Assembly (NCBI RefSeq): GCF_001677475.2
Contig: NZ_CP015229.1
Strand: one strand, 5' to 3'
Source: Escherichia coli
Lineage (GTDB): Bacteria > Pseudomonadota > Gammaproteobacteria > Enterobacterales > Enterobacteriaceae
Length of the DNA: 64,000 bases
Shown: piece after piece, positions 1 through 14,378 of the stretch
Layout of the letters: each line of letters begins with the position of its first letter
Numbering within the stretch: position 1 is the stretch's first letter
Made by a program: the position numbers and the translations under genes
The notes under the pieces: model-generated
Told to the model about the DNA's origin: nothing
Database searches by the model: none
Seen by the model: the letters and a program-made list of their open reading frames with translations, nothing else

Positions 1-234
1 CTGGCCTGGGCCTCCAGCGCCGGGATCATCAGCCTGCTGTTTATTTTTGTCGCCTACCAGCCTGGCGTGGAAAACCAGACCGCCAGTTCGCTTGGCGGGA
101 TCGCGGCGATGGAAACATTACTGCCTGCGCTATTCCACCTGCTGCTGGCAGGGGCGATCCGCTTTTGCAAACTCAATAATCCTATGATGTCACGCATAGC
201 TACCGACCTGCGTCAGCGTCATGTACAGCCTTAA
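1..234 (+). CDS. 3' fragment (C-terminal 77 aa) of a membrane transporter, possibly a sugar:cation symporter; 5' end lies outside the window
   Basis: Open frame from position 1 to TAA at 232-234; translation is hydrophobic (…IISLLFIFVAYQP…LLPALFHLLLAGAIRF…) like a terminal TM helix pair; sits immediately upstream of a glycoside hydrolase gene. Family assignment is a guess. Confidence 0.45.
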   Translation: MAWASSAGIISLLFIFVAYQPGVENQTASSLGGIAAMETLLPALFHLLLAGAIRFCKLNNPMMSRIATDLRQRHVQP

Positions 235-244
235 GGAGCACAAG

Positions 245-2215
245 ATGAACATTTCGGAAGTCGATCTGCATAAACTGACGGTCAGCGATCCGTTCCTCGG
301 TCAGTACCAACAACTGGTCCGCGACGTGGTGATTCCTTATCAGTGGGATGCCTTGAACGATCGTATCCCAGAAGCGGAACCCAGCCATGCGATTGAAAAC
401 TTTCGCATTGCCGCCGGACTTCAGGAGGGTGAATTTTACGGGATGGTGTTTCAGGACAGCGACGTCGCCAAATGGCTGGAAGCGGTAGCCTGGTCGCTGT
501 GCCAGAAGCCGGACGCCGAACTGGAAAAAACCGCCGACGAGGTAATCGAACTGATCGCCTCCGCCCAATGCGAAGACGGCTATCTCAATACTTACTTTAC
601 GGTAAAAGTACCCGAAGAACGCTGGAGCAATCTGGCGGAGTGTCATGAACTTTACTGCGCCGGTCATCTGATTGAAGCCGGAGTCGCCTTCTTCCAGGCC
701 ACGGGCAAGCGGCGCTTGCTGGAAGTGGTTTGCCGTCTGGCCGATCATATCGACAGCGTATTTGGTCCAGATGAAAGTAAGTTACACGGTTACCCTGGTC
801 ACCCGGAAATTGAACTGGCACTGATGCGTCTGTATGAAGTGACCGAAGAGCCGCGCTACCTGGCACTGACGAACTATTTTGTCGAACAGCGTGGTGCGCA
901 ACCGCACTATTACGACCAGGAATATGAAAAGCGCGGGCAGACCTCGCACTGGCACACCTACGGCCCGGCGTGGATGGTGAAAGATAAAGCCTACAGCCAG
1001 GCGCATTTGCCCATCGCACAGCAACAAACCGCCATCGGACATGCAGTACGCTTTGTCTATCTGATGACCGGCGTCGCGCATCTCGCGCGTTTAAGTCACG
1101 ATGACAGCAAGCGTCAGGACTGCCTGCGGCTGTGGAACAATATGGCCCAGCGTCAGTTATATATTACCGGCGGCATTGGCTCGCAAAGCAGCGGCGAAGC
1201 GTTCACTAGCGATTACGATCTGCCGAATGACACGGTATACGCTGAAAGTTGCGCCTCCATCGGCCTGATGATGTTTGCCCGACGAATGCTGGAAATGGAA
1301 GGCGACAGTCAATATGCCGATGTGATGGAGCGCGCACTGTACAACACCGTGCTCGGCGGCATGGCGCTGGATGGCAAACATTTCTTCTATGTGAATCCGC
1401 TGGAAGTACATCCAAAATCGCTGAAATTCAACCATATCTACGATCACGTTAAACCGATCCGCCAGCGTTGGTTTGGCTGCGCTTGTTGTCCGCCAAATAT
1501 CGCCCGCGTGCTGACCTCGATTGGTCATTATCTCTACACGCCGCGTGAAGATGCGTTGTATATCAACATATACGCAGGAAACAGCATGGAAGTGCCGGTA
1601 GAAAATGGCACGCTGCGCCTGCGGGTTAGCGGGAACTATCCGTGGCAGGAGCAGGTGACGATTGCGGTTGAATCGCCCCAGCCGGTACGTCATACGCTGG
1701 CTTTACGTCTGCCGGACTGGTGCACACAGCCGCAGATCATATTGAATGGGGAAGAGGTCGAGCAGGATATTCGTAAAGGGTATTTGCACATTACCCGCGA
1801 ATGGCAGGAGGGCGATACGCTGAATCTGACTTTGCCGATGCCGGTACGCCGCGTTTACGGTAACCCGCTGGTGCGTCACGTCGCCGGAAAAGTGGCGATT
1901 CAGCGCGGCCCGCTGGTGTATTGCCTGGAACAGGCCGACAACGGCGAGTCACTGCATAATCTGTGGCTGCCCACCGATGCGCCATTTACGACATTTGAAG
2001 GCAAGGGATTGTTTAGCCATAAGATCTTAATCCAGGCACCGGGTTACCGGTATGAACAGAGCAATCCAGAGCAGCAACCGCTGTGGCATTACGACAGCGC
2101 GCCAGCCAAACGCCAGACGCAAACTCTGACCTTTATCCCGTGGTTTAGCTGGGCCAACCGGGGTGAAGGCGAAATGCGGATCTGGGTGAATGAGGAAAAG
2201 CATTGCCATCCGTAG
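245..2215 (+). CDS. Glycoside hydrolase family 127 (DUF1680) protein, beta-L-arabinofuranosidase-like
   Basis: ORF in track 221..2215; I place the start at ATG 245 (MNISEVDL…), 8 nt after AGGAG at 233-237. Contains the Cys-rich motif WFGCACCPPNIAR typical of HypBA1-type GH127 enzymes. Not part of K-12 gene order at this position as I recall it. Confidence 0.8.
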   Translation: MNISEVDLHKLTVSDPFLGQYQQLVRDVVIPYQWDALNDRIPEAEPSHAIENFRIAAGLQEGEFYGMVFQDSDVAKWLEAVAWSLCQKPDAELEKTADEVIELIASAQCEDGYLNTYFTVKVPEERWSNLAECHELYCAGHLIEAGVAFFQATGKRRLLEVVCRLADHIDSVFGPDESKLHGYPGHPEIELALMRLYEVTEEPRYLALTNYFVEQRGAQPHYYDQEYEKRGQTSHWHTYGPAWMVKDKAYSQAHLPIAQQQTAIGHAVRFVYLMTGVAHLARLSHDDSKRQDCLRLWNNMAQRQLYITGGIGSQSSGEAFTSDYDLPNDTVYAESCASIGLMMFARRMLEMEGDSQYADVMERALYNTVLGGMALDGKHFFYVNPLEVHPKSLKFNHIYDHVKPIRQRWFGCACCPPNIARVLTSIGHYLYTPREDALYINIYAGNSMEVPVENGTLRLRVSGNYPWQEQVTIAVESPQPVRHTLALRLPDWCTQPQIILNGEEVEQDIRKGYLHITREWQEGDTLNLTLPMPVRRVYGNPLVRHVAGKVAIQRGPLVYCLEQADNGESLHNLWLPTDAPFTTFEGKGLFSHKILIQAPGYRYEQSNPEQQPLWHYDSAPAKRQTQTLTFIPWFSWANRGEGEMRIWVNEEKHCHP

Positions 2216-2330
2216 GTTGGATAAGGCACTCGCGCCGCATCCAACGTAAGGAGCACATTGCCTGATGCGACGCTTAACACGTCTTATCAGGCATACAAGT
2301 CGGTGCGAGAGCGTAGGCCAGCCGCACCGA
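2216..2330. repeat. REP/BIME-like palindromic units between convergent GH127 gene and yiaT
   Basis: Palindromes gttggat…atccaac (2216-2245), gcctgatgcgacgc…gtcttatcaggc (2260-2292), cggtgcg…cgcaccg (2302-2330); the middle unit matches the canonical REP form. Confidence 0.6.
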
Positions 2331-2344
2331 CATCCACCGGTGAA

Positions 2345-3085
2345 TTAAAAACGCCAGCTCACGCCGGTGACAAAGGTAAAACTCTCATTACGATCAATCA
2401 TCGGGCTGTCGGTAATCTCTTCCGGCAGCTCGCTGTATCCTGCGCTCGCCATCAATACGACGTGCTCTCCTATCGGGTATTTTGCCGTCAGGCTGACATA
2501 GGGCACCCAGGAATCCTGCGCGGAATAACTTGCCAGACCGCTACGACGGGACTCACTCTCTGAAATGCCATAGTAATAGTCACTGAAATTCTCGTCATAA
2601 TAGAGAACGCCCAGCGCAGGTGTCAGCGACAGACGACCTATCTGCATTTTGTGGAATACCGATAGCTCCCCCACCCAGCCGTTGCTGTTATCCAGAACGT
2701 CCGCAGCTGCAGAGGCTTTCACGGTTCCCCAACGCTCGTGGTGATACCAGGCAACCCCCGCCATAGCCGTACTATCACGCTTATCAAGCTGTTGCATGGC
2801 ATAATCGTCATTATCGGCAGGGTCAAATTCCAGCGGCATCCAGGATGCGGTCAGGCTAAGTTCATTTTTTTCACTTTGCGACAGAATAAAACCTAACGTG
2901 GTCTGACGAACATAAAAAGAATCACCTTCATAACTAATCAGGGGAATTGCCTTTGTATTTTCATTATAACCGCGATAAGGCGATTCATTATAAGCCGCAC
3001 CGGCACCAATGGATAATTCAGAAGCAGTTGCGCTTGCCATAAAAGGCAACGCAAATAACGCCACAATATTGCGGTTAATTAACAT
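2345..3085 (-). CDS. yiaT: MipA/OmpV-family outer-membrane protein YiaT
   Basis: 246-aa ORF; sequence recognised as YiaT (MLINRNIVALFALPFMASA… signal peptide, ends …GVSWRF aromatic C-terminus typical of OM beta-barrels). Confidence 0.85.
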   Translation of the reverse strand: MLINRNIVALFALPFMASATASELSIGAGAAYNESPYRGYNENTKAIPLISYEGDSFYVRQTTLGFILSQSEKNELSLTASWMPLEFDPADNDDYAMQQLDKRDSTAMAGVAWYHHERWGTVKASAAADVLDNSNGWVGELSVFHKMQIGRLSLTPALGVLYYDENFSDYYYGISESESRRSGLASYSAQDSWVPYVSLTAKYPIGEHVVLMASAGYSELPEEITDSPMIDRNESFTFVTGVSWRF

Positions 3086-3208
3086 GTCCGGTATTCCATT
3101 TTAAAATAAGATAAAAAAGAGTCGGCATAGTAATGCTTACAATTTCTCCGGTGCAAGATTCATATTTATATAGTAATATATAAAATTATATATAATTGGG
3201 CTGTTGCG

Positions 3209-4183
3209 ATGACAAAATTACAACTTAAGTACCGGGAGTTAAAAATTATCTCGGTAATCGCTGCCAGTGAAAATATCAGCCATGCCGCGACTGTACTTGG
3301 CATCGCACAGGCCAACGTCAGCAAATATCTTGCTGATTTTGAATCAAAAGTAGGTTTAAAAGTCTTTGACCGAACCACCCGGCAACTGATGCTCACACCT
3401 TTTGGTACCGCGCTGTTGCCATACATCAATGACATGCTGGACAGAAACGAGCAGCTTAATAATTTTATTGCAGATTATAAGCATGAGAAACGTGGTCGGG
3501 TCACTATCTATGCACCAACCGGCATAATTACCTATTTATCCAAACATGTAATCGATAAAATTAAAGATATCGGTGATATCACCTTATCGCTAAAAACCTG
3601 CAATCTTGAGCGTAATGCCTTTTATGAAGGCGTCGAATTTCCCGATGATTGTGATGTTTTAATCAGCTACGCTCCACCAAAAGATGAATCGCTGGTTGCC
3701 AGTTTTATTACGCAATATGTCGTAACCGCTTATGCCAGCCAGCGCTATCTTGAGAAACATCACATTAGCCGTCCTGACGAACTCGAACATCACTCCTGTA
3801 TTTTGATCGACTCAATGATGATCGACGACGCGAATATCTGGCGCTTCAACGTCTCCGGGAGTAAAGAGGTGCGGGATTATCGTGTGAAGGGAAATTACGT
3901 TTGCGACAACACGCAATCGGCGCTGGAGCTGGCACGAAATCACCTGGGGATTGTGTTTGCGCCAGACAAAAGTGTGCAGAGCGATCTGCAAGACGGCACG
4001 CTGGTGCCCTGCTTTCAGCACCCGTATGAATGGTGGCTGGATCTGGTGGCTATCTTCCGTAAACGGGAATACCAGCCCTGGCGGGTCCAGTATGTGCTGG
4101 ATGAAATGCTGCGTGAAATTCGCCACCAGCTTGCTCAGTCGCAGCAACTGCGGCCTGAACAAGCGGCGGAAAGCGAAGATTAA
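3209..4183 (+). CDS. yiaU: LysR-family transcriptional regulator YiaU
   Basis: 324-aa ORF with N-terminal HTH (…[38 protein letters not shown]…); divergent from yiaT, ATG at 3209. Confidence 0.85.
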
Positions 4184-5316
4184 TGATCGAGATAAAGGTA
4201 ATGCACCCAGCTGGTCATGCGTAATAACACTTTGCGCATCACCGAGACATGGCTGAAATGATCGGAGTAGACCGCCACCTGGGCGTAAATACCGTCTGGT
4301 AAAGCGCTCAAATCAGTATGCTCATCCAGTTCAATGGTCGCGATAACGCCATCTGAACCCGGCGCTGTGTTTAACGTCTGTAAGGTACCGGTCGACTGAT
4401 AAGCTCCACCGGGAACAGCTGGACTAATGGCTGCCAGCTTACCGCTGAATACCTTACCTGGCAGAGCATTAAACACCACTTCCGCATCGTCACCAGGAGC
4501 CAGTCGCAGCAAGGAGTTCTGACGGAACTGCGCCACGATTTGTCGTTTCTGATCGGGTATAAACACCATCACCGGACGTAGCGGCAGCGACGCGGCATAG
4601 GTACCCGGACGAATCAGGACCTGGGCCACGTAACCATCGCTCGGCGCACGCACTATCGTCTGCTCAAGGTTATATTTTGCTTCCGCGAGCTGCGCTTTCA
4701 GGCTGGCGATTAGAGAATGTTCACCCAACACCAGGCTATCCAGCTGGCTCTGGACCTGTTTTTGTTCCGCCGCCGATGACTTTACGGAGGCTTCCTGCGC
4801 CAGATAATTTTGCCGCGCCACATCAATATCGCGTTCTGAAAACGGGTTTACTTTCGCCTGGCTGCCGCGTGCGTAACGCTGATACTCTTTAGCGAATTTA
4901 TCCCGCGTGGCCTTTGCCTGCTGAGTATTCGCCGCCATCTCATCTAACTCTGCGCCCAACGCCCGCTGTTTATGTTCTGCGGTAACGATATCCGCCATCA
5001 GCCGATCCACCCGCGCCTGATAACGCGTCGGGTCCAGTCGAAAAAGCACCTCGCCTTTTTTAATCAGCGTATTTTTCTTATCCGTCACTTCAATCACCAC
5101 GCCTGTCACCTGTGGGACAACAGGGATGGAAATAACCGCTTTTTGCGCTTTAAAGGTATACGGATGGTTATAGTTCATTAACAGAATTAAACCGCTGACA
5201 ATAAATATTCCCCCCAGGGCCGCTGTGGGAATGGTCCATTTATTTACAGGAATTTTGAAGATCTTAAACATTGCCCATGCGAAAGCCACATAGGTCAAGA
5301 TAATCAGTAAATCCAT
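4180..5316 (-). CDS. yiaV: HlyD-family periplasmic adaptor (membrane-fusion) protein YiaV
   Basis: 378-aa ORF; N-terminal TM helix, coiled-coil middle, barrel-sandwich/biotinyl-like C-terminal region; ATG at 5316 lies 5 nt after the yiaW stop. Confidence 0.85.
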
Positions 5317-5321
5317 AAGTA

Positions 5322-5645
5322 TTACTCGGCAGAAGAGGATTTGATGTCGGCGAGCTGTTTCTCCAGCCCGGCAATACGCTGTTGTAGTTGCACAACGGAG
5401 GAGTCATGGTTTTGCATTCCCCATCCCCGCTCCGGGCGGTAAAGCGTGGCCCAAATCCACAAAAATGGCCAGATAACATGCAGCGTAAAAAGACTCACCC
5501 AACCAGCGACATGAATGGCGTCGGCATGAGGATGATTACGTTTTTTAGCAATCAGGTAGGGAATATCATGTAAAATAATAATCCCATAGAATATCACCAG
5601 AAATACAAAAATAAGCACTCCCAGTGCAAAATAATCCAGGAACAT
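5322..5645 (-). CDS. yiaW: Small inner-membrane protein YiaW (DUF3302-like)
   Basis: Track ORF 5322..5675; I choose ATG at 5645 ([13 protein letters not shown]…, 107 aa) with GAGGG upstream; two predicted TM helices plus a C-terminal coiled-coil tail. Confidence 0.8.
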
Positions 5646-6066
5646 ATTTCCCTCAGAGAATATAAAAAAGAACAATTAACGCATATTATGAAATGCCATG
5701 ATGCAGTGCAATTTCCTTATTTATATAACGACATATTGTTTTTTATATACTTTCTGAAGTGTGCTGCCTGGCTTTTCAGCAGGTCGAGGCTTATCATATT
5801 GAAATAATGGAACTATTGACAAAACTAATGAATAACTCCAGTAAAACATCCACAGTACAGATAAAGCGTATTAAACCTTCAATTATCTACCGTTTATTGC
5901 TGATTGGCCTCGGAACACCAATGGTGATTTACGGCCTGGTTCGCCCGCTCACCATCGAAACGCGAGATTAAACTCCTGGCAAAACACGCCCCAGAAACGC
6001 ACTTCTGTTGGCGTAGTCTGGGTTATTGCGCACGTAGGTTTAAAACGTAAATTGTAACAAAGTGCG

Positions 6067-6148
6067 CTTTGTTTATGCCGGATGCGGCGTGTACGCCTTA
6101 TCCGGCCTACGGTCAGGTCCCCGTAGGCATGATAAGACGCGTAAGCGT
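6067..6148. repeat. REP pair (BIME) downstream of aldB
   Basis: gccggatgcggcgtgtacgccttatccggcctac and gtaggcatgataagacgcgtaagcgtcgcatcaggc: canonical inverted REP units. Confidence 0.65.
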
Positions 6149-6189
6149 CGCATCAGGCAATGAATACCCAATGCGACCAGCTTCTTATA

Positions 6190-7728
6190 TCAGAACAGCC
6201 CCAACGGTTTATCCGAGTAGCTCACCAGCAGACACTTGGTTTGCTGATAATGCTCCAGCATCATCTTATGGGTTTCGCGTCCGATGCCCGACTGTTTGTA
6301 GCCGCCAAACGCCGCATGTGCCGGGTAAGCGTGATAACAGTTGGTCCACACGCGCCCGGCCTGAATGCCGCGCCCCATCTTATAGGCCAGATTACCGTTG
6401 CGGCTCCAGACGCCCGCGCCCAGGCCATATTGCGTGTCATTCGCCAGCTCCAGCGCCTCTTCCATCGTTTTGAAGGTGGTCACCGCCAGCACCGGGCCAA
6501 ATATCTCTTCCTGGAACACACGCATATTGTTCTGACCAAACAGAATCGTCGGTTCGAGGTAGTAGCCGTCTTTCAGTTCGCCTTCCAGCAGCTTGCGCCG
6601 CCCGCCGGTAAGCACATCTGCGCCCTCTTTTTTGCCGATATCAATGTAATTGAGGATGGTTTCCAGTTGCCCGTGAGATACCTGCGCGCCCATTTGCGTC
6701 ACGCTGTCGAGCGGGTTACCGCTACGAATGCTTTCAACACGACGGATGGCGCGTTCCATAAAGCGTTCGTAGATAGACTCCTGCACTAAAGCACGGCTTG
6801 GACAGGTGCAAACTTCGCCCTGGTTGAAGGCGAACAATGCAAAGCCCTCCAGCGCCTTATCGAAGAAAGCATCTTCTTCATCCATCACATCGGCAAAGAA
6901 GATATTTGGCGACTTACCGCCCAACTCCAGCGTCACCGGAATAATATTTTGCGTGGCGTACTGCATAATCTGCTGACCGACTTCCGTTGAGCCGGTAAAC
7001 GCCACTTTGGCGATACGTTTTGAGGTCGCCAGATATTCACCTATTTCGCCGCCCGCACCGTTGACCACGTTCACCACGCCTGGCGGCAGTAAATCACCGA
7101 CGATCTCCATCAAAAGCAACACTGAAAGCGGGGTAAGTCGTGCGGGTTTTAGCACCACGCAGTTGCCCGCCGCCAGCGCGGGAGCCATTTTCCAGCTCGC
7201 CATCAGCAACGGGAAGTTCCACGGGATAATCTGCCCCACCACGCCTAACGGTTCGTGGAAGTGATAAGCCACAGTTTCGCTATCGACTTCACTGATCCCA
7301 CCTTCCTGCGCCCGAATACACGAGGCGAAATAGCGGAAATGGTCAATCGCCAGCGGCACATCGGCAGCACTGGTTTCGCGGATGGGCTTGCCGTTATCCC
7401 AGGTTTCTGCCGTCGCTAACAGTTCGAGGTTCTGCTCCATCCGATCGGCAATCTTAAACAGAATCGCCGCGCGATCCTGCACCGAGGTATGCGCCCATTT
7501 GTCTTTCACTTTATGCGCGGCATCCAGCGCCAGATCGATGTCGCGTTTGCCCGAAGACGCCACTTCGCACAGTAGCTGCCCGGTCACCGGCGTCAGGTTC
7601 TGGTAATACTCGCCGTCGGCGGGTGCTACCCATTCGCCGCCGATAAAGTTGTCATAGCGAGCTTTTAACTTGAGGGGGAAACCATACTCGCCGGGCTTAA
7701 TCTGTGCTGAAGGGGGATTGTTGGTCAT
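6190..7728 (-). CDS. aldB: Aldehyde dehydrogenase B
   Basis: Track ORF is 558 aa; conserved protein begins at [17 protein letters not shown]… (ATG 7728, AAGGAGACGATC upstream), giving 512 aa; classic ALDH motifs present. Confidence 0.95.
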
Positions 7729-7892
7729 GATCGTCTCCTTGCGGTGTGAGGTATAACAAGGGTAGACGTGACTGGCGAAATCTTCGCCAGCCGGTGACAG
7801 CTTTACGACGGCAATCACGAATTTACGGGCAAGGATTACAGAGATAATTGAAAAATCGGCTGACAATTTGCCAGCCGTTGTGGGAATGATGA

Positions 7893-9044
7893 TTACATCG
7901 CAGCGCGATAAATCGCCACAATTTCTTCGTGAGTTGCCTGAATCGGGTTAGTAAATCCGCAGGCATCTTTCAGAGCATTGGTCGCCAGTACCGCGAAATC
8001 TTCTTCTTTCACGTTCAGATCGCGCAGACCTGCCGGAATATCGACTTTCTTCGCCAGTTCACGGATAGCGTTAATGCAGGCTTCTGCACCTTCCGCGTCG
8101 TTTTTACCTGTCACGTTCACGCCCATTGCAGCAGCGCAGTCACGCAGACGTGCGGCAGCTACTTTGCTGTTGAATACCTGAACGTGCGGCAGCAGAACGG
8201 CGTTACATACACCGTGCGGCAGGTTGTAGAAACCGCCTAACTGGTGCGCCATCGCATGAACATAACCCAAAGACGCATTGTTGAACGCCATACCGGCGAG
8301 GAACTGGGCATAAGCCATCGCTTCACGCGCTTTCGCATTGCTGCCATCTTCTACGGCTAACGGCAGGTTTTCGGCAATCATGGTCACGGCTTTCAGTGCG
8401 CAAGCGTCAGTGATCGGCGTTGCGGCAATAGACACATACGCTTCGATAGCGTGTGTTAAGGCATCCATACCCGTTGCAGCGGTCAGTGACTTCGGCATAC
8501 CGATCATCAGAGAGGAGTCATTGACAGAAAGCAGCGGAGTCACGTGTTTATCCACAATCGCCATTTTGATGTGGCGCGCTTCGTCAGTGATAATGCAGAA
8601 ACGGGTCATTTCAGACGCAGTACCCGCCGTGGTGTTGATGGCGATCATCGGCAACTGCGGTTTTGCAGAGCGGTCAACGCCTTCGTAATCGCGAATATCA
8701 CCGCCGTTGGCTGCCACCAGCGCAATGCCTTTCGCACAATCGTGCGGAGAACCACCACCTAAGGAAATCACGCTATCGCAATTATTTTCTTTCAGCAGTT
8801 TGAGGCCTGCGGCGACGTTTTCCGTAGTTGGGTTAGGCTGGGTGCCATCATAAATAACGCTAAAAATATTGCGTTCTTCCAGTGCTTTTTGCACATCGCC
8901 CGCCATACCTAATTTCGTTAAAATATTGTCAGTAACAATTAATGTACGGGTAAAGCCATAGTCTGCCATCATATTCATTGCATCATTCAATGAATCAGCG
9001 CCGATGACATTCACTGAAGGAATAAAAAAGGTTGAAGCTGCCAT
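7893..9044 (-). CDS. yiaY: Iron-containing (group III) alcohol dehydrogenase YiaY
   Basis: 383-aa ORF with Fe-ADH signatures ([11 protein letters not shown]…, …HAMAHQLGG…). Confidence 0.9.
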
Positions 9045-9232: not shown

Positions 9233-11077
9233 TTATTTTTCGGGAAATAATAATGCATCGCGCAATAAATGATCATTTCCACGACGCCGCGTAAAGCCAA
9301 TGCGGTCAAAATATTCCAGAATCTGAATTGCCAGCTTTCGGCCTACACCTAAGCGATCGCGGAAATCCGCCGCGCAGGTTGAGCCACATTCCTGATCGAG
9401 ATCGCGGATCATATTGGCAAATTCAACAATCCGATCATTACGGTAATAACGATCTTTGACGATCGCCGTAATTATCCCCTGCTGTGCCGCCTGGCGTAGC
9501 GTCAAGCGCATTGCCTGCTCGTCGGTTCCCGTCTCTTTTGCCAGGTCACGCACCCACCACGGCTCGTCACCAAACAGCGGCTCTGCTTTTTGCCAGATGG
9601 CCTGCTGCTCTTCGCTGAAGCCCGCTTTGTGATCCGGCAGATGCAGCCAGCCGTGATGACTGAGGATGTCGCCGCTTTCGCGCATCTTTTCAATCAGCAA
9701 CAGTACCAGCGCTTCATCTTCCATTGGCAACGCCATACGTCGCAGACGTTCGCGCCCAGGACCAGGTTCATCGCGATGTTGCTCATGATAAGTCGCTAAT
9801 GTGTCGAGAATTTTCCGCTGCCAGCGGGCGGCAACCGGCGCATTCAACAAGCTATAACCAGCCTGAATATAGCCAGGCTGTTGCAATAGTTCGCGCATCC
9901 CTTCGCCGTTGAGCTGCCGTGCCCAGGCGAAATCGGCAAGGTTAACCGCGCCGCGTTCCAGATGAACAGATAACGCATCGGCATCGCTCTGCGCCCGTGC
10001 CAGTGACGCCAGCCATTGCAGATATTCCGGCTTACGTTTACCGCGACGCGGCGGGTTAAGCATCACCACACGCGCCCCCGCCAGCGTGTTGCGGGCCGAG
10101 ATATCGCGCAGCACTAAGCGATCGTTATCCGCCAGCCACAGCGGCGTGTCGAACACCAGCTCGGCAAGGTTATCTTCCAGCAGCGAAACGCGCCCCGTAA
10201 CATGGCTGGCGGCGTGGTGAATATGCAGCGGCTGCCACTGGGTCAGCGGTGTATGAGTTTGAAGCTCGACAATCACCCGTGTGAACGGCTCTGGCGGCAC
10301 ATCGGCAAGCAGCCAGTCGCCACGGTTAATCTGCTCTTTTTCCGCATCACCCGCGATGTTAAGTGCGATACGCTGCCCGGCATGGGCGGTTTCTGTTGGC
10401 TGGTTTTGCGCATGCAGCGCACGTACACGCATCGATTTATTTACACCAGTCAGCCATAGTGAATCGCCTACCTTCACTTCCCCGCTTAACGCCGTACCGG
10501 TGACGACCAGCCCGGCACCTTTTACAGTAAATGCGCGGTCGATCGCGAGGCGGAAACTATGTTGGCTGGCGTGTTCACGTTCTGGTAACTGAAGCAGATG
10601 CTCGCGCAGGGCATCAATTCCCCGACCTTCGGTTGCTGCGGTGATAAACAGTTTTGCCTCAGCAAAACCGTATTCCCGCAGCACCTCCTTTACCTGGCGT
10701 TCAACCTCATCAACACGCGCTTCGTCCACGCGATCGGCTTTGGTCAGCGCCACTGTCAGCATCGGGTTACCAGTCAGCTGCAAAATCGCCAGATGCTCAC
10801 GGGTCTGTGCCATCACGCCGTCATCGCACGCCACCACCAACAGCGCGTGATCGATACCACCAACGCCCGCCAGCATGTTGGAAAGAAACTTTTCATGACC
10901 GGGAACGTCGATAAAACCAGGCACGCGGCCATCCGGCTGCGGCCAGTAGGCATAACCGAGATCGATGGTCATGCCGCGCTTTTTTTCTTCCGGCAGACGG
11001 TCGGCATTTACGCCAGTAATCGCCTGCAATAAGGTTGTTTTGCCGTGGTCAACGTGTCCGGCAGTCGCAATAATCAT
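9233..11077 (-). CDS. selB: Selenocysteine-specific elongation factor SelB
   Basis: 614-aa ORF; N-terminal GTPase motifs ([24 protein letters not shown]); start overlaps selA stop. Confidence 0.95.
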
Positions 11078-12465
11078 TTCAACAACATCTCCAAAAACCG
11101 TTGCTCATCTTCAAGGCAGCGTAAATCCAGCCACAATCGTCCGTCATAAATACGACCAATCACCGGCACTGGCAATTCACGCCAGCGGGCGGCTAATGAC
11201 TCAAGGTGGCTACCGCGTCCATCATGGGGTGTAAACGTTAATGCCGCGCTCGGCAGGCGATCAACCGGCAGCGAACCACTGCCAATCTGCGAAAGACATG
11301 GCATAACCTGGACTGCAAACTCCGCGCCGTAATGTGCGGCAAGGGGAGCCTGTAAACGTTGTGCCTGGATTTGAATGACCTCTGCGCTGCGGGTAAGCAG
11401 GCGCAGGGTCGGTAATTTTTCACTCAGCGCCTCAGGGTGTAAATAAAGACGCAGCGTGGCTTCCAGCGCCGCGAGGGTCATTTTATCCGCGCGTAATGCA
11501 CGCTTCAGTGGATGGCTTTGCAGGCGGGCGATCATCTCTTTTTTACCAACGATAATCCCTGCCTGCGGCCCGCCTAACAACTTGTCGCCGGAGAAGCTCA
11601 CCAGGCTGACGCCCGCCGCAATCAACTCCTGCGGCATCGGCTCTTTCGGCAAACCGTACTGGCTAAGATCGACCAGCGAACCACTGCCTAAATCAGTCAC
11701 TACGGGAACATCCAGTTCTTTGCCAAGCGCCACCAGTTCAGCTTCATCTATCGCTTTGGTGAACCCCTGAATGCTGTAGTTACTGGTATGTACTTTCATC
11801 AACAGTGCGGTATTTTCATTCACCGCCTGACGATAATCATTCGCGTGCGTGCGGTTGGTGGTCCCCACTTCGTGCAGGGTACAGCCAGCCTGACGCATGA
11901 CGTCAGGGATACGAAACGCGCCGCCGATCTCCACCAGTTCGCCACGAGACACCACCACCTCTTTACCGCTGGCAGTGGCCGCCAACATCAATAACACCGC
12001 CGCCGCATTGTTATTAACGATACAGGCATCTTCCGCCCCCGTAATACGGCACAGCAGCTGCGCCAGCGCACGATCGCGATGTCCGCGTCCGGCGTCGTCC
12101 AGATCGTACTCCAGCGTCACCGGCGAACGCATAGCCTGCGCAACGGCTTCCACCGCGGCTTCTGCCTGTAAAGCTCGCCCAAGATTGGTATGCAGCACGG
12201 TTCCCGTCAGGTTGATCACCGGACGCAGCGCGCTCTGCGCTTCTTTCGTCAACCGGGCATCGACTTCTTGCGCCCAGTTCTCACACCACGCGGGCAGCGT
12301 CTGGCTGTCACGAATCACTTCTCGCGCTTCGTCAAGCATCTGACGCAGCAATTCCACCACGCGGGTGTGACCATAAGTATCACGCAAAGAAAGGAAGGAG
12401 CTATCGCGCAATAAGCGATCAATAGCCGGAAGTTGACTATAGAGGGAACGCGTTTCGGTTGTCAT
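11074..12465 (-). CDS. selA: L-seryl-tRNA(Sec) selenium transferase SelA
   Basis: 463-aa ORF recognised as SelA ([19 protein letters not shown]…), PLP-dependent fold. Confidence 0.95.
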
Positions 12466-12562
12466 AGGAAACCTGGCTAATCAAGGCTCTCTCACACGGA
12501 GAAGGGCGTTTAACATAACCACGGATTGTAACGTGAGATGGGTCAGGAGGACATATCGCGCA

Positions 12563-13171
12563 TCAAGCCTTTGGCGGTTCGGTGCGAGCAAAACTTTCGC
12601 GGCTAAACAGGTTTTCGACCAGTTTGACTAAGTGTGGGCGGTCGACACACCAGCCTGGCGCAACGCGGCGGAAATTGAGATATCCGACGGCACAGGCAAT
12701 GGCGATAGTCGCCAGATTGACCGTATCGGTTTTGAGTGTGCCATCGACCAGATATCCTTCCAGCACATCCAGACTGCGGTTGATTTTCTCCCGCTGGCGT
12801 AACAATTCATCTTCAGACTGCTGCGCCGCCGGACGCGCCTGTTCGCGCACCGACACCAGCCCGGCATCCATAATACCGTCGGCCAGCGCCTCAATTTTAC
12901 GCACTCGCAACGACTCCAGCGGATCGCGCGGCAACATCGCCGGAGCGACATTCATTAATTCAATATATTCGGCAATGATCGGCGAATCAAACCAACATTC
13001 GCCCTCTTCGGTCACCAGCACCGGCACTTTCCCTAACGGGTTAAATTGCGCCACGCCGTTGTCCGCGTTATAGGGCAGCTCATTAATAAATTCGAAAGTT
13101 ATGCCCTTTTCTAACAACAGAATAGAAAGTTTGCGTACAAACGGGCTGGTGTAGCTACCGACGAGTTTCAT
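12563..13171 (-). CDS. yibF: Glutathione S-transferase-like protein YibF
   Basis: 202-aa ORF with GST N-terminal thioredoxin-like fold ([24 protein letters not shown]…). Confidence 0.85.
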
Positions 13172-13241
13172 GCCGAGTCCTTTGTGCGAGGAAAAATATC
13201 AGTATGGCTCAGGCTCGCGCAAAACACAGGTGACATAAGTC

Positions 13242-14378
13242 TCAATGATCCAAATAAAGATAATGCATCCAACTGGTCATTCTCAGCAGCACCTTCCGCA
13301 TCACCGAAACATGGCTGAAATGGTCGGAGTAAACTGCTACCTGGGCGTAAATGCCGTCGGGTAAGGCATCGATATCATCGTTGGGGTCCAGTTCAATGGT
13401 TCCCAGCACACCGTCCGTGCCGGGCACGACCGTTAATGATTGCAATACCCCCTGCGCCTGATAAGAACCGCCTGGCACGACAGGTAAAATACTGGTCAGT
13501 TTGCCGTGGAACACCTGCCCAGGTAGCGCGTTAAACACCACTTCCGCATCATCGCCGGGTTTCAGACGTAACAGCGAGTTCTGCCGAAATTGGGCGACAA
13601 TTTGCCGTTTTTGCTCGGGGATGAAAACCATCACCGGACGTAGCGGCAAGGCAGCTGCGTATGTACCTGGGCGGATCAGTACCTGAGTAACGTAGCCATT
13701 GCTTGGTGCGCGAATGACAGTCTGCTCAAGGTTATATTTTGCTTCAGTAAGTTGCGCTCTTAAGCTCACAATCTGCGACTGCTCGCCGTTAACCATACTG
13801 TCGAGCTGGCTCTGGATCTGCGCCTGCTCCGCCACCGAGCCTTTCACCAGCGCGTCCTGCGCGAGGAAGTTTTGCCGCGCATCGTCGATGTCACGTTCCG
13901 AGAACGGATTCACCGCCGCCTGGCTACCTTTCAGGTAACGTTGATAATTTTTAAACAGACGGTCGCGCTCCGCTGAAACCTGGGTGGTGTTGGCCTGCGC
14001 TTCAGTGAGCTGGGCGCGCAGCGTCTTTATATTATGCGTCGCCGTCATCAGGTCAGCCTGAAGTCTGTCAACTCGCGCCTGGTAACGAACCGGGTCGAGT
14101 TTAAAAAGCACCTCGCCCTTTTGAATAAGCTGATTATTCTTGTCAGTGACTTCAGTAACAATTCCCGTCACCTGTGGCGTGATGGGGATCGCTATCACTG
14201 CCTTTTGCGCGGTAAAAGTGTAAGGATGGTTGTAGTTCATCAATAAAATCAAACCACTCACCAGAAATACGCCTCCCAACGCCGCCGTCGCCAGCGTCCA
14301 CTGATTCACCGGAATGCGGAAGATTTTAAATACTGCCCATGCCAGCGCCACGTAAGTTAAAACAATTAACAGATCCAT
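13242..14378 (-). CDS. yibH: HlyD-family periplasmic adaptor protein YibH (paralog of YiaV)
   Basis: 378 aa; co-linear with YiaV over its full length with identical C-terminus (…[33 protein letters not shown]). Confidence 0.85.

Follow-up and report, generated by a model that had tools for sequence, protein, structure and literature searches.

The left edge of the 64,000-nucleotide stretch of Escherichia coli DNA analysed here (the window) carries an intact gene for a glycoside hydrolase of family 127 (GH127), which in related genomes is preceded by a symporter gene and a divergently oriented gene for an AraC-type regulator. Taking all the evidence together, we think it likely that these three genes form an accessory sugar-use module for beta-L-arabinofuranosides, and that the locus, long a neighbour of the yiaK-S operon in enterobacteria, has been worn down by deletions that arose independently. 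The GH127 gene is already annotated in RefSeq and the module is an ordinary accessory one of an already known kind. The locus leaves the current understanding of GH127 enzymes and of E. coli genome dynamics unchallenged.

The GH127 gene and its product

The gene occupies positions 245-2215 of the + strand and encodes a protein of 656 amino acids (RefSeq WP_021578079.1, 'glycoside hydrolase family 127 protein'). The start at 245 is identical to that chosen in the RefSeq annotation, and an AAGGAG Shine-Dalgarno motif can be read from the sequence at 233-238 (+), where it overlaps the stop codon of the symporter gene. An in-frame ATG at 221 was discarded as start codon, since it lies inside the symporter gene and has no Shine-Dalgarno sequence; besides, RefSeq and all the orthologues begin at a methionine of the MNISEVDL type. 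The original prediction had proposed a GH127-type enzyme at 245-2215, and the Pfam HMM searches with the 656-residue protein sustained it far beyond chance, with matches to the catalytic domain PF07944 (E 4.7e-112, 375 bits against a cut-off of 24.9), the middle domain PF20736 (E 7e-24, 84 bits) and the C-terminal domain PF20737 (E 1.6e-25, 89 bits). The HMM check assigned it to GH127 and to no non-glycosidase family. The best match in a search of the PDB was 4qjy from Geobacillus (784 bits, E 1e-234, ~55% identity over query residues 11-650), and HypBA1 from Bifidobacterium longum (3wkw) was also found (510 bits, E 1e-151). With all three of the GH127 domains present and full-length alignment to both 4qjy and 3wkw, the protein belongs by sequence to the CAZy family GH127 (DUF1680). 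The identity of ~55% to the solved 4qjy structure along the full length suggests that it would fold into an (alpha/alpha)6 barrel. The enzyme is predicted to be cytoplasmic because its N-terminus, MNISEVDLHKLTVSDPF, is devoid of signal-peptide features.

The roles of the active-site residues are defined for HypBA1, in which Cys417 is the nucleophile, Glu322 is the acid/base, and Zn is bound by Glu338, Cys340, Cys417 and Cys418 (PMC8106489). Residues were matched through a HMMER alignment of the GH127 protein to 3wkw and their positions were then recomputed. On the + strand, E318 (codon 1196-1198) aligns with the acid/base Glu322, while E334 (1244-1246) and C336 (1250-1252) align with the Zn ligands Glu338 and Cys340. 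The C412-A-C414-C415 motif (1478-1489) supplies the equivalents of the nucleophile Cys417, which is C414, and of the Zn ligand Cys418, which is C415. This motif is part of FGCACCPPN (residues 410-418, nucleotides 1472-1498, +), the conserved Cys-rich catalytic motif that had been noticed beforehand. Thus, the nucleophilic cysteine and the acid/base glutamate of the family are both conserved, and the four residues of the predicted (Cys)3-Glu Zn2+ site, E334, C336, C414 and C415, are all there. The five positions are invariant in 8 orthologues from E. coli, Salmonella, Klebsiella and Kosakonia.

The top structures in the PDB search are named beta-L-arabinofuranosidases, from which an EC 3.2.1.185 activity on terminal non-reducing beta-L-arabinofuranosides is predicted. 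The same substrate class had been proposed as a possibility from the start, and it agrees by homology with both the HMM and the PDB searches. It should be considered that GH127 is a functionally mixed family, which includes the aceric acid hydrolase BT1003 and the GH127s of a Zobellia carrageenan cluster (PMC5698469). The E. coli enzyme might accordingly have another specificity (of the aceric acid type, an anhydro-sugar hydrolase, or one for a beta-L-arabinofuranosylated small plant glycoside), with the symporter importing that compound. The sole NCBIfam model matched is named aceric acid hydrolase (NF049879, an equivalog), the transporter is a GPH symporter whereas B. longum uses an ABC importer for beta-Ara2 (PMC8106489), and the place of the module next to lyxK-sgbHUE (L-xylulose/L-ribulose-5-P genes), conserved in E. 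coli, Salmonella and Klebsiella, might point to another pentose. We think that such a specificity is unlikely. The aceric acid model was discarded as an assignment: it gives just 456.4 bits, far short of its cut-off (950), and its best alignment covers only residues 252-649. The structures of GH127 enzymes other than arabinofuranosidases rank lower, with 387 bits for 6ex6 and 320 bits for 5mqo, than the 784 and 510 bits of the beta-L-arabinofuranosidases. As for the pentose, purifying selection still maintains the module where yiaK-S has been deleted, as in genomes of the O157:H7 type, and in Kosakonia it sits apart from yiaK-S; therefore, it is independent of these genes, and a functional tie between them was rejected.

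Layout of the three-gene module and its flanks

A transporter gene had been expected at the left edge, and window positions 1-234 (+) are indeed the 3' end of a symporter gene of the GPH family, comprising its last 77 codons and a TAA stop (frame 1 is open over 1-231, with the stop at 232-234). This DNA agrees at every position with the 3' end of the 'MFS transporter' gene WP_000204810.1 of strain Combat11I9 (locus L001, 12001-12234). The complete gene in genomes identical here measures 1401 bp and encodes 466 amino acids. The fragment of 77 amino acids matches the GPH family weakly by itself (TIGR00792, 25.9 bits, E 3.5e-6). The full protein, taken for scoring from a genome with no differences from the window over 1-2344, matches Pfam MFS_2 (PF13347) with E 8e-73 and reaches 331.8 bits with TIGR00792 (GPH:cation symporter), above the cut-off of 231.35. 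Its best subfamily matches, YagG with 355 bits and the glycoside-pentoside-hexuronide transporter PRK11462 with 323 bits, stay below the subfamily/equivalog cut-offs (610 and 836), so it is a distinct member of the GPH family.

Extension to the left through the identical genomes recovered the whole symporter and, upstream of it, a divergent regulator of the AraC type that lies outside the window (271 amino acids, L001 9793-10608; matches to PF12833, PF00165 and PF02311, giving it an AraC-type HTH and an AraC-like ligand-binding domain). The regulator and most of the symporter were read from genomes whose identity with the window over 1-2344 is 100% or 99.9%. Those with 100% identity there fall to ~97.7% farther right and have a Fic gene that is absent from the window, which is a mosaic relative to them in that part. 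With a query of 25 kb, none of the complete genomes matched over 90% of the length at a single place; for this reason, the left flank of the window is one that we infer. The order AraC (-), MFS_2 (+), GH127 (+) and the spacing are identical across the E. coli loci inspected, and the regulator gene has an equivalent position in Klebsiella, Kosakonia and Salmonella. The unit is located in K. michiganensis at the syntenic site, between a sgbE-like gene and selB, and in Kosakonia sacchari at an unrelated chromosomal site. One Salmonella lineage has kept the AraC and GH127 genes and lost the symporter gene, and the link between the hydrolase and this transporter is therefore not a strict one.

Only 10 nt separate the symporter stop from the GH127 start, which implies co-transcription of both genes and possibly coupled translation; no terminator-like site was found between them on the + strand. 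The terminator-like sites matched on that strand in the window all fall within coding sequence, and a sigma-70 promoter scan of the window gave nothing above shuffle expectation. The divergent regulatory region of 225 bp between the AraC and symporter genes contains blocks that are invariant across four genera, and the scan found no sigma-70 consensus promoter in it. This null result weighs little, because promoters activated by AraC typically lack a good -35 hexamer.

On the other side, yiaT adjoins the hydrolase gene, as had been stated originally. This gene for an outer-membrane protein of the MipA/OmpV family (2345-3085, -; PF06629, E 4e-52; RefSeq gene name yiaT) is convergent with the GH127 gene at a separation of 129 bp, and it is a neighbour of the module and no part of it. 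The intergenic region (2215-2344) holds a REP-like cluster, probably of the REP/BIME type, with three stable hairpins (MFE -58.4 kcal/mol, z -5.5). At 2215-2293 its score with the Rfam family naRNA4 (RF02564, derived from REP325) is 58.7 bits, slightly below the gathering threshold of 59.5 (E 4e-9). A partial, inverted second copy of the element (41 nt) is present at 6123-6162, and this copy and the three hairpins would be consistent with a repeat of the REP type. K-12 does not have the hairpin stretch, since window positions 2108-2317 find no aligning K-12 sequence. The cluster is probably a transcript-end or stabiliser element for GH127 and yiaT.

Population distribution and history of the locus

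The proposal that the locus varies between strains proved right. The part of the GH127 gene that is deleted in K-12 (245-1900) was used as query with a coverage of at least 80%, and it is present in 2314 of the 5426 complete E. coli genomes (~43%), with identities of at least 95% in all of them. The arrangements at this site fall into several types. The sgbE gene adjoins an intact AraC gene in 1893 of the 5426 genomes, a yiaJ'-AraC deletion junction is found in 426, the double-remnant junction of K-12 in 2460, and sgbE lies directly beside aldB in 481; some lineages have lost both the module and yiaTUVW. In the undeleted arrangement, which is that of E. coli B and strain LR-31, the yiaK-S operon and the GH127 module stand side by side. 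They are thus neighbours and not alternative cassettes, since in 1893 genomes sgbE adjoins the intact AraC gene that heads the module.

Strain LR-31, which is of the full type, served as the reference for mapping the ends of the deletions. In K-12, the module has been reduced by a 4021-bp deletion plus another of ~210 bp. The sgb/yiaK-S operon of K-12 had been described as ending at sgbE next to yiaT; the two genes are not in direct contact, as two remnants lie between them. The first is 104 bp from the 3' end of the regulator gene (locus L002, 7897-7998). The second is an internal GH127 piece of 190 bp (L002 8001-8190, equivalent to window 1918-2107 and to residues ~559-621) with 89.5% identity, labelled in RefSeq as 'hypothetical protein' only. 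The reported K-12 gene order yiaS-ysaC-ysaD-yiaT (PMC12361893) suggests that these remnants are the features named ysaC and ysaD. Because it keeps both remnants, K-12 is a deletion derivative and does not hold a different cassette. The genomes identical to the window at this locus (O157:H7, Combat11I9) have suffered a deletion separate from that of K-12, in which ~9 kb from yiaJ' to sgbE were lost and, with them, yiaK-S. The locus illustrates neatly how gene loss can be reciprocal at a single site, with K-12 as the degenerate state.

One might read the genomes that are identical to the window at this locus, in which the module stands in the place of yiaK-S, as carriers of a recently acquired island that replaced this operon by horizontal transfer. 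The GC content of the module (52.8-54.7%) exceeds the window mean of 49.1%, and in Kosakonia the module is beside an integrase-like fragment. This explanation is largely refuted, and we give it very little credit. Besides the 1893 genomes with both units in contact and the remnants at the same site in K-12, Klebsiella and Salmonella have the module at the syntenic site, with protein identities of 83-86% and dS at saturation. The junction of the window type is a simple deletion by which yiaJ became joined to the AraC 3' end, and no mobility genes were seen flanking the E. coli module.

The repeated losses raise another question, which is whether the GH127 gene is a decaying relic without current function in E. 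coli, heading to the K-12 state. The independent deletions (2460 genomes of the K-12 type and 481 of the sgbE-aldB type), the symporter deletion in a Salmonella lineage and the regulatory region without a detected sigma-70 consensus promoter would fit with it. Nevertheless, we find it highly improbable. The frame is intact and the catalytic residues are all kept, both in the window and in each of the orthologues examined, and no pseudogene flag is attached to the gene at the E. coli loci inspected. Comparisons within E. coli give dN/dS ratios of 0.04-0.11, and those with other genera 0.04-0.07, which means that the gene is under purifying selection, whereas the true remnant of K-12 has 8 of 63 residues changed (13%). 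What can be said is that the module is dispensable in many niches, because more than half of the E. coli genomes have lost it.

Related systems and proposed function

The nearest solved relative is Ara127N from Geobacillus stearothermophilus T6 (4QJY/4QK0), an intracellular enzyme that aligns end to end with E. coli GH127, with a similar length (648 versus 656 amino acids) and the FxCACCPPN motif. It differs in coming from a Gram-positive thermophile, and its gene belongs to a large cluster for arabinan utilisation that includes ABC transporters, instead of a three-gene GPH module. HypBA1 (3WKW/3WKX/7DIF) is the founding and mechanistically defined member of the family, and it acts in the cytoplasm on a disaccharide that has been imported. 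It shares the nucleophile, the acid/base and the Zn site with E. coli GH127, although it is more distant and has an N-terminal insertion that is missing from the E. coli protein. In B. longum it is partnered by a GH121 arabinobiosidase outside the cell and by an importer of the ABC type (PMC8106489). The E. coli module has a GPH symporter instead of the latter, and no GH121 gene was found in the flanking regions inspected.

K-12 has several pairs in which the gene of a GPH symporter is beside that of a cytoplasmic glycosidase, such as melB-melA, uidB-uidA, yicJ-yicI and yagG-yagH. The module described here shares this architecture, but its hydrolase is a GH127 with a cysteine nucleophile, versus the GH4, GH2, GH31 and GH43 enzymes of those pairs. 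The ysaC and ysaD features of K-12 occupy the same chromosomal site as the module, but they are non-functional fragments.

From these homologies, the most likely function is the uptake of a beta-L-arabinofuranoside followed by its hydrolysis in the cytoplasm. The symporter would import a small compound of this class, for which beta-1,2-arabinobiose or a related oligosaccharide is the best candidate. Its source might be plant hydroxyproline-rich glycoproteins or pectic arabinans, from which other gut or plant microbes would set it free. GH127 would cleave it as HypBA1 does, by a retaining mechanism with a cysteine nucleophile, in which C414 would attack C1, E318 would serve as acid/base, and E334, C336, C414 and C415 would hold the Zn. 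The L-arabinose released could enter the araBAD pathway, and the AraC-type protein would presumably switch the operon on when sensing the sugar. The identity of the substrate, the inducer, the direction of regulation and the cross-feeding ecology are all put forward here as predictions. We know of no secreted enzyme of E. coli that releases beta-arabino-oligosaccharides, so the supply of substrate must be assumed.

A more ambitious version holds that AraC-GPH-GH127 is a self-sufficient cross-feeding system, allowing growth on disaccharides of the beta-L-arabinofuranosyl type, freed from extensins and pectin by bifidobacteria or by microbes associated with plants. We propose it tentatively, and would put its chances slightly short of even. 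If true, it would serve ~43% of the E. coli strains, O157:H7 and E. coli B/BL21 among them, and might explain the co-segregation of GH127 with epithelial invasiveness in isolates from inflammatory bowel disease (IBD) (PMC11879602). It would also go against the working assumption that bound L-Araf is of no use to E. coli: a paper on arabinose use by O157:H7 does not mention the GH127 gene and states that the species has no direct access to L-Araf (PMC8489885). In a bolder variant, the natural substrate could be an undescribed beta-L-arabinofuranoside specific to enterobacterial niches.

Searches of the literature on E. coli-specific GH127 yielded no more than a pangenome association study and a commentary on it, with no biochemistry, and no enzymology or growth data on the protein were found in the searchable literature. 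A statistical link of the gene with invasive IBD isolates has been reported (PMC11879602) and, together with its presence in O157:H7, this gives the function of GH127 some interest, even if its importance is modest. On the practical side, the E. coli B lineage of expression hosts carries an intact endogenous GH127 gene, which is relevant when recombinant beta-L-arabinofuranosidases are assayed in lysates.

The GH127 enzyme and its gene context

The window is E. coli chromosomal DNA: of 5426 complete E. coli genomes, 4807 match positions 1-3200. Over positions 1-2344, strains Combat11I9, L26 and 23CRST011 show 100% identity. On the plus strand, reading frame 1 has no stop from the first base until a TAA at 232-234, which ends a symporter gene (1-234). 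This stop codon is overlapped by AAGGAG, upstream of the ATG at 245 that opens the 656-codon GH127 gene (245-2215, plus strand). After a gap of 129 bp comes yiaT on the minus strand (2345-3085; MipA family, E 4e-52), and then the LysR-type gene yiaU (3209-4183). The original prediction of a transporter fragment and a GH127 hydrolase abutting yiaT was right in its coordinates, as reading frames, domain matches and annotation bear out; its interpretation is supported as well, with refinements regarding K-12 remnants and the relation of the genes to yiaK-S.

The 656-aa protein contains the catalytic, middle and C-terminal Pfam domains of GH127 (E 4.7e-112, 7e-24 and 1.6e-25). Its top solved structure is the beta-L-arabinofuranosidase 4qjy of Geobacillus stearothermophilus (784 bits, E 1e-234; query residues 11-650, ~55% identity by count), followed by B. 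longum HypBA1 with 510 bits, while GH127 structures without the arabinofuranosidase name rank lower (6ex6, 387 bits; 5mqo, 320 bits). In HypBA1 the nucleophile is Cys417, the acid/base is Glu322, and Zn is bound by a (Cys)3-Glu site (PMC8106489). Their HMMER-aligned counterparts are C414 and E318, and E334/C336/C414/C415 for the Zn site; all five positions are invariant across the E. coli, Salmonella, Klebsiella and Kosakonia orthologues. The Cys-rich motif recognized initially is FGCACCPPN (nt 1472-1498). From this homology we infer a beta-L-arabinofuranoside as substrate, and think that a GH127 member with a different specificity is rather unlikely. The enzyme should be cytoplasmic because its N-terminus has no signal-peptide character.

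The sole NCBIfam match, the aceric acid hydrolase equivalog, reaches 456 of the 950 bits required and was rejected as an assignment.

The gene is of a known kind and already annotated: RefSeq lists the product as 'glycoside hydrolase family 127 protein' (WP_021578079.1), in a 90%-identity cluster of 13,276 sequences. A GH127 protein is among the accessory genes that Kim et al. (2024, PMC11879602) listed as co-segregating with the invasiveness of IBD isolates; citing HypBA1, they credited it with hydrolysis of beta-1,2-arabinobiose. This is probably the gene at 245-2215, since E. coli genomes have one GH127 copy. The literature search turned up no work on the biochemistry or physiology of the E. 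coli enzyme, and a study of O157:H7 arabinose use on plants does not mention the gene (PMC8489885).

A symporter-hydrolase module beside a divergent regulator

A 466-aa protein annotated 'MFS transporter' ends in the same 77 residues as the fragment at the left edge. In full length it hits Pfam MFS_2 (E 8e-73) and exceeds the cut-off of TIGR00792, the GPH:cation symporter model (331.8 vs 231.35 bits); the closest subfamilies, YagG and the glycoside-pentoside-hexuronide transporter model PRK11462, are both sub-threshold. In every GH127-carrying E. coli genome inspected (Combat11I9, L26, EC1515, O157:H7 F8492, EC476, GPEC874, LR-31 and E. coli B), symporter and GH127 are preceded by a divergent 271-aa AraC-family regulator with an AraC-type ligand-binding domain. 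Klebsiella michiganensis has the three genes with order and spacing unchanged at the syntenic site, between an sgbE-like gene and selB, and in Kosakonia sacchari they lie at an unrelated position. In a Salmonella enterica lineage, an intact regulator and GH127 occupy the syntenic site with the symporter cut to a 10-codon stub, so that this lineage retains the hydrolase without its dedicated transporter. The stub (7960-8010 of the GCA_010859705.1 locus) reads ATGACCTCTA and then TAGCCTTAAGGAGCACGAAATGA, and its stop overlaps the GH127 start codon.

GH127 proteins of other genera are 83-86% identical to that of E. coli. Alleles within E. coli give a dN/dS of 0.04-0.11, and comparisons with those genera give 0.04-0.07. 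Purifying selection acts on GH127, which contradicts the possibility that it is a functionless relic, a reading that we do not favour.

The best-supported function, judged from sequence, is beta-L-arabinofuranoside uptake and cytoplasmic hydrolysis. A small beta-L-arabinofuranoside would be imported by the GPH symporter and hydrolysed by GH127 through the cysteine/Zn retaining mechanism of HypBA1; the L-arabinose released would enter araBAD, and the AraC-type protein would exert sugar-dependent control. The layout parallels the E. coli symporter-plus-glycosidase pairs melBA, uidBA, yicJI and yagGH. E. coli is not known to have a secreted enzyme that makes such oligosaccharides, so cross-feeding must be assumed.

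Outside the window, the regulator/symporter divergent region (10609-10833 of the Combat11I9 locus) has blocks invariant in E. coli, Klebsiella, Kosakonia and Salmonella: TTTGATTATT, CAGGTCGGAATCG, CTTTTT.TACT and CCTTGT. They are candidate operator/activator sites, for the regulator or CRP. No sigma-70 consensus promoter was detected in this intergenic region, which is not unusual for activator-dependent promoters.

The B-lineage laboratory strains E. coli B-ZidR (3793-8224 of its locus) and C2566 have the intact module plus yiaK-S; expression hosts of that lineage therefore possess an endogenous GH127.

Repeated deletion at the yiaK-S locus

Deletions were compared to strain LR-31, which has yiaJ, yiaK to sgbE, AraC, symporter, GH127 and yiaTUVW. 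The original prediction placed sgbE next to yiaT in K-12, but the two do not adjoin: an AraC regulator piece (102 bp as annotated) and a 189-bp fragment annotated 'hypothetical protein' intervene. The latter (8001-8190 of the K-12 locus) aligns within GH127, at window 1918-2107, with 89.5% identity. Given the published order yiaS-ysaC-ysaD-yiaT (PMC12361893), the AraC and GH127 pieces are probably ysaC and ysaD, respectively. K-12 lacks 4021 bp, from the regulator interior to GH127 nt 1673, and a further ~210 bp that takes in the 3' end of GH127 and the REP-like region, with CCAGCC microhomology at the junction; an alignment search for a K-12 counterpart of window 2108-2317 gave no match, the stretch being absent. 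The GH127 remnant, common to ~45% of genomes, has 8 of 63 residues changed and no stop codon, and its nucleotide divergence (10.5%) is near the local synonymous divergence (dS 0.08-0.12), which fits long neutral decay.

Genomes identical to the window over 1-2344 lack ~9 kb; what is left of yiaJ, 141 bp of its 3' end, is fused directly to the AraC-gene stop codon at the sgbE/AraC terminator hairpin. Junction-specific searches of the 5426 genomes found this yiaJ'-AraC junction in 426 (O157:H7 included), the K-12 double-remnant junction in 2460, sgbE adjoining intact AraC in 1893, and sgbE directly adjoining aldB, without module and yiaTUVW, in 481 (e.g., ATCC 11775). GH127 (245-1900) is present in 2314 and adjoins yiaT in 1255; most other positives have a hicBA pair and a type I restriction gene in place of yiaTUVW.

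The sgbE-AraC adjacency, the K-12 remnants and the junction counts make the module an old resident beside yiaK-S, eroded several times, and simple deletions explain the variability of the locus. Recent horizontal replacement of yiaK-S by the module is not favoured, as synteny and the K-12 remnants contradict it; a replacing cassette was rejected because both units adjoin in full-type genomes. GC is 52.8-54.7% in the module vs 49.1% in the window, and no mobility genes flank the module in E. coli.

In roughly 1000 GH127-positive genomes, the hicB/hicA toxin-antitoxin pair and the annotated type I restriction endonuclease lie between GH127 and aldB, replacing yiaT-yiaU-yiaV-yiaW (11336-13500 in locus L003 and 11281-13445 in L004, both of GH127-positive E. 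coli).

Flanks and downstream sequence

The window begins inside the symporter gene, and the genomes 100% or 99.9% identical over 1-2344 suggest that the regulator and the yiaK-S deletion lie to its left. Beyond ~3.3 kb, identity to these genomes drops from 99.9-100% to ~97.7%, and a Fic-family gene (~1.3 kb) that Combat11I9, L26, EC1515 and also O157:H7 carry between aldB and yiaY is absent, at about 7841-7848. Recombination has thus made the source strain a mosaic here, and the left-flank arrangement is likely but not certain.

Between the convergent GH127 and yiaT genes, positions 2216-2344 hold an ordinary REP/BIME-like element whose predicted fold has three stable hairpins (-58.4 kcal/mol, z -5.5). 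Rfam naRNA4 (RF02564, REP325-derived) scores 58.7 bits at 2215-2293, slightly short of its gathering score of 59.5, and a 41-nt copy is inverted at 6123-6162, ~3.9 kb downstream.

None of the complete E. coli genomes covers more than 90% of window 1-25000 in one place. The best places for these first 25 kb span ~38 kb of subject, including S6 peptidase, YadA-like and fimbrial usher genes, which indicates variable islands downstream of the locus in other strains.
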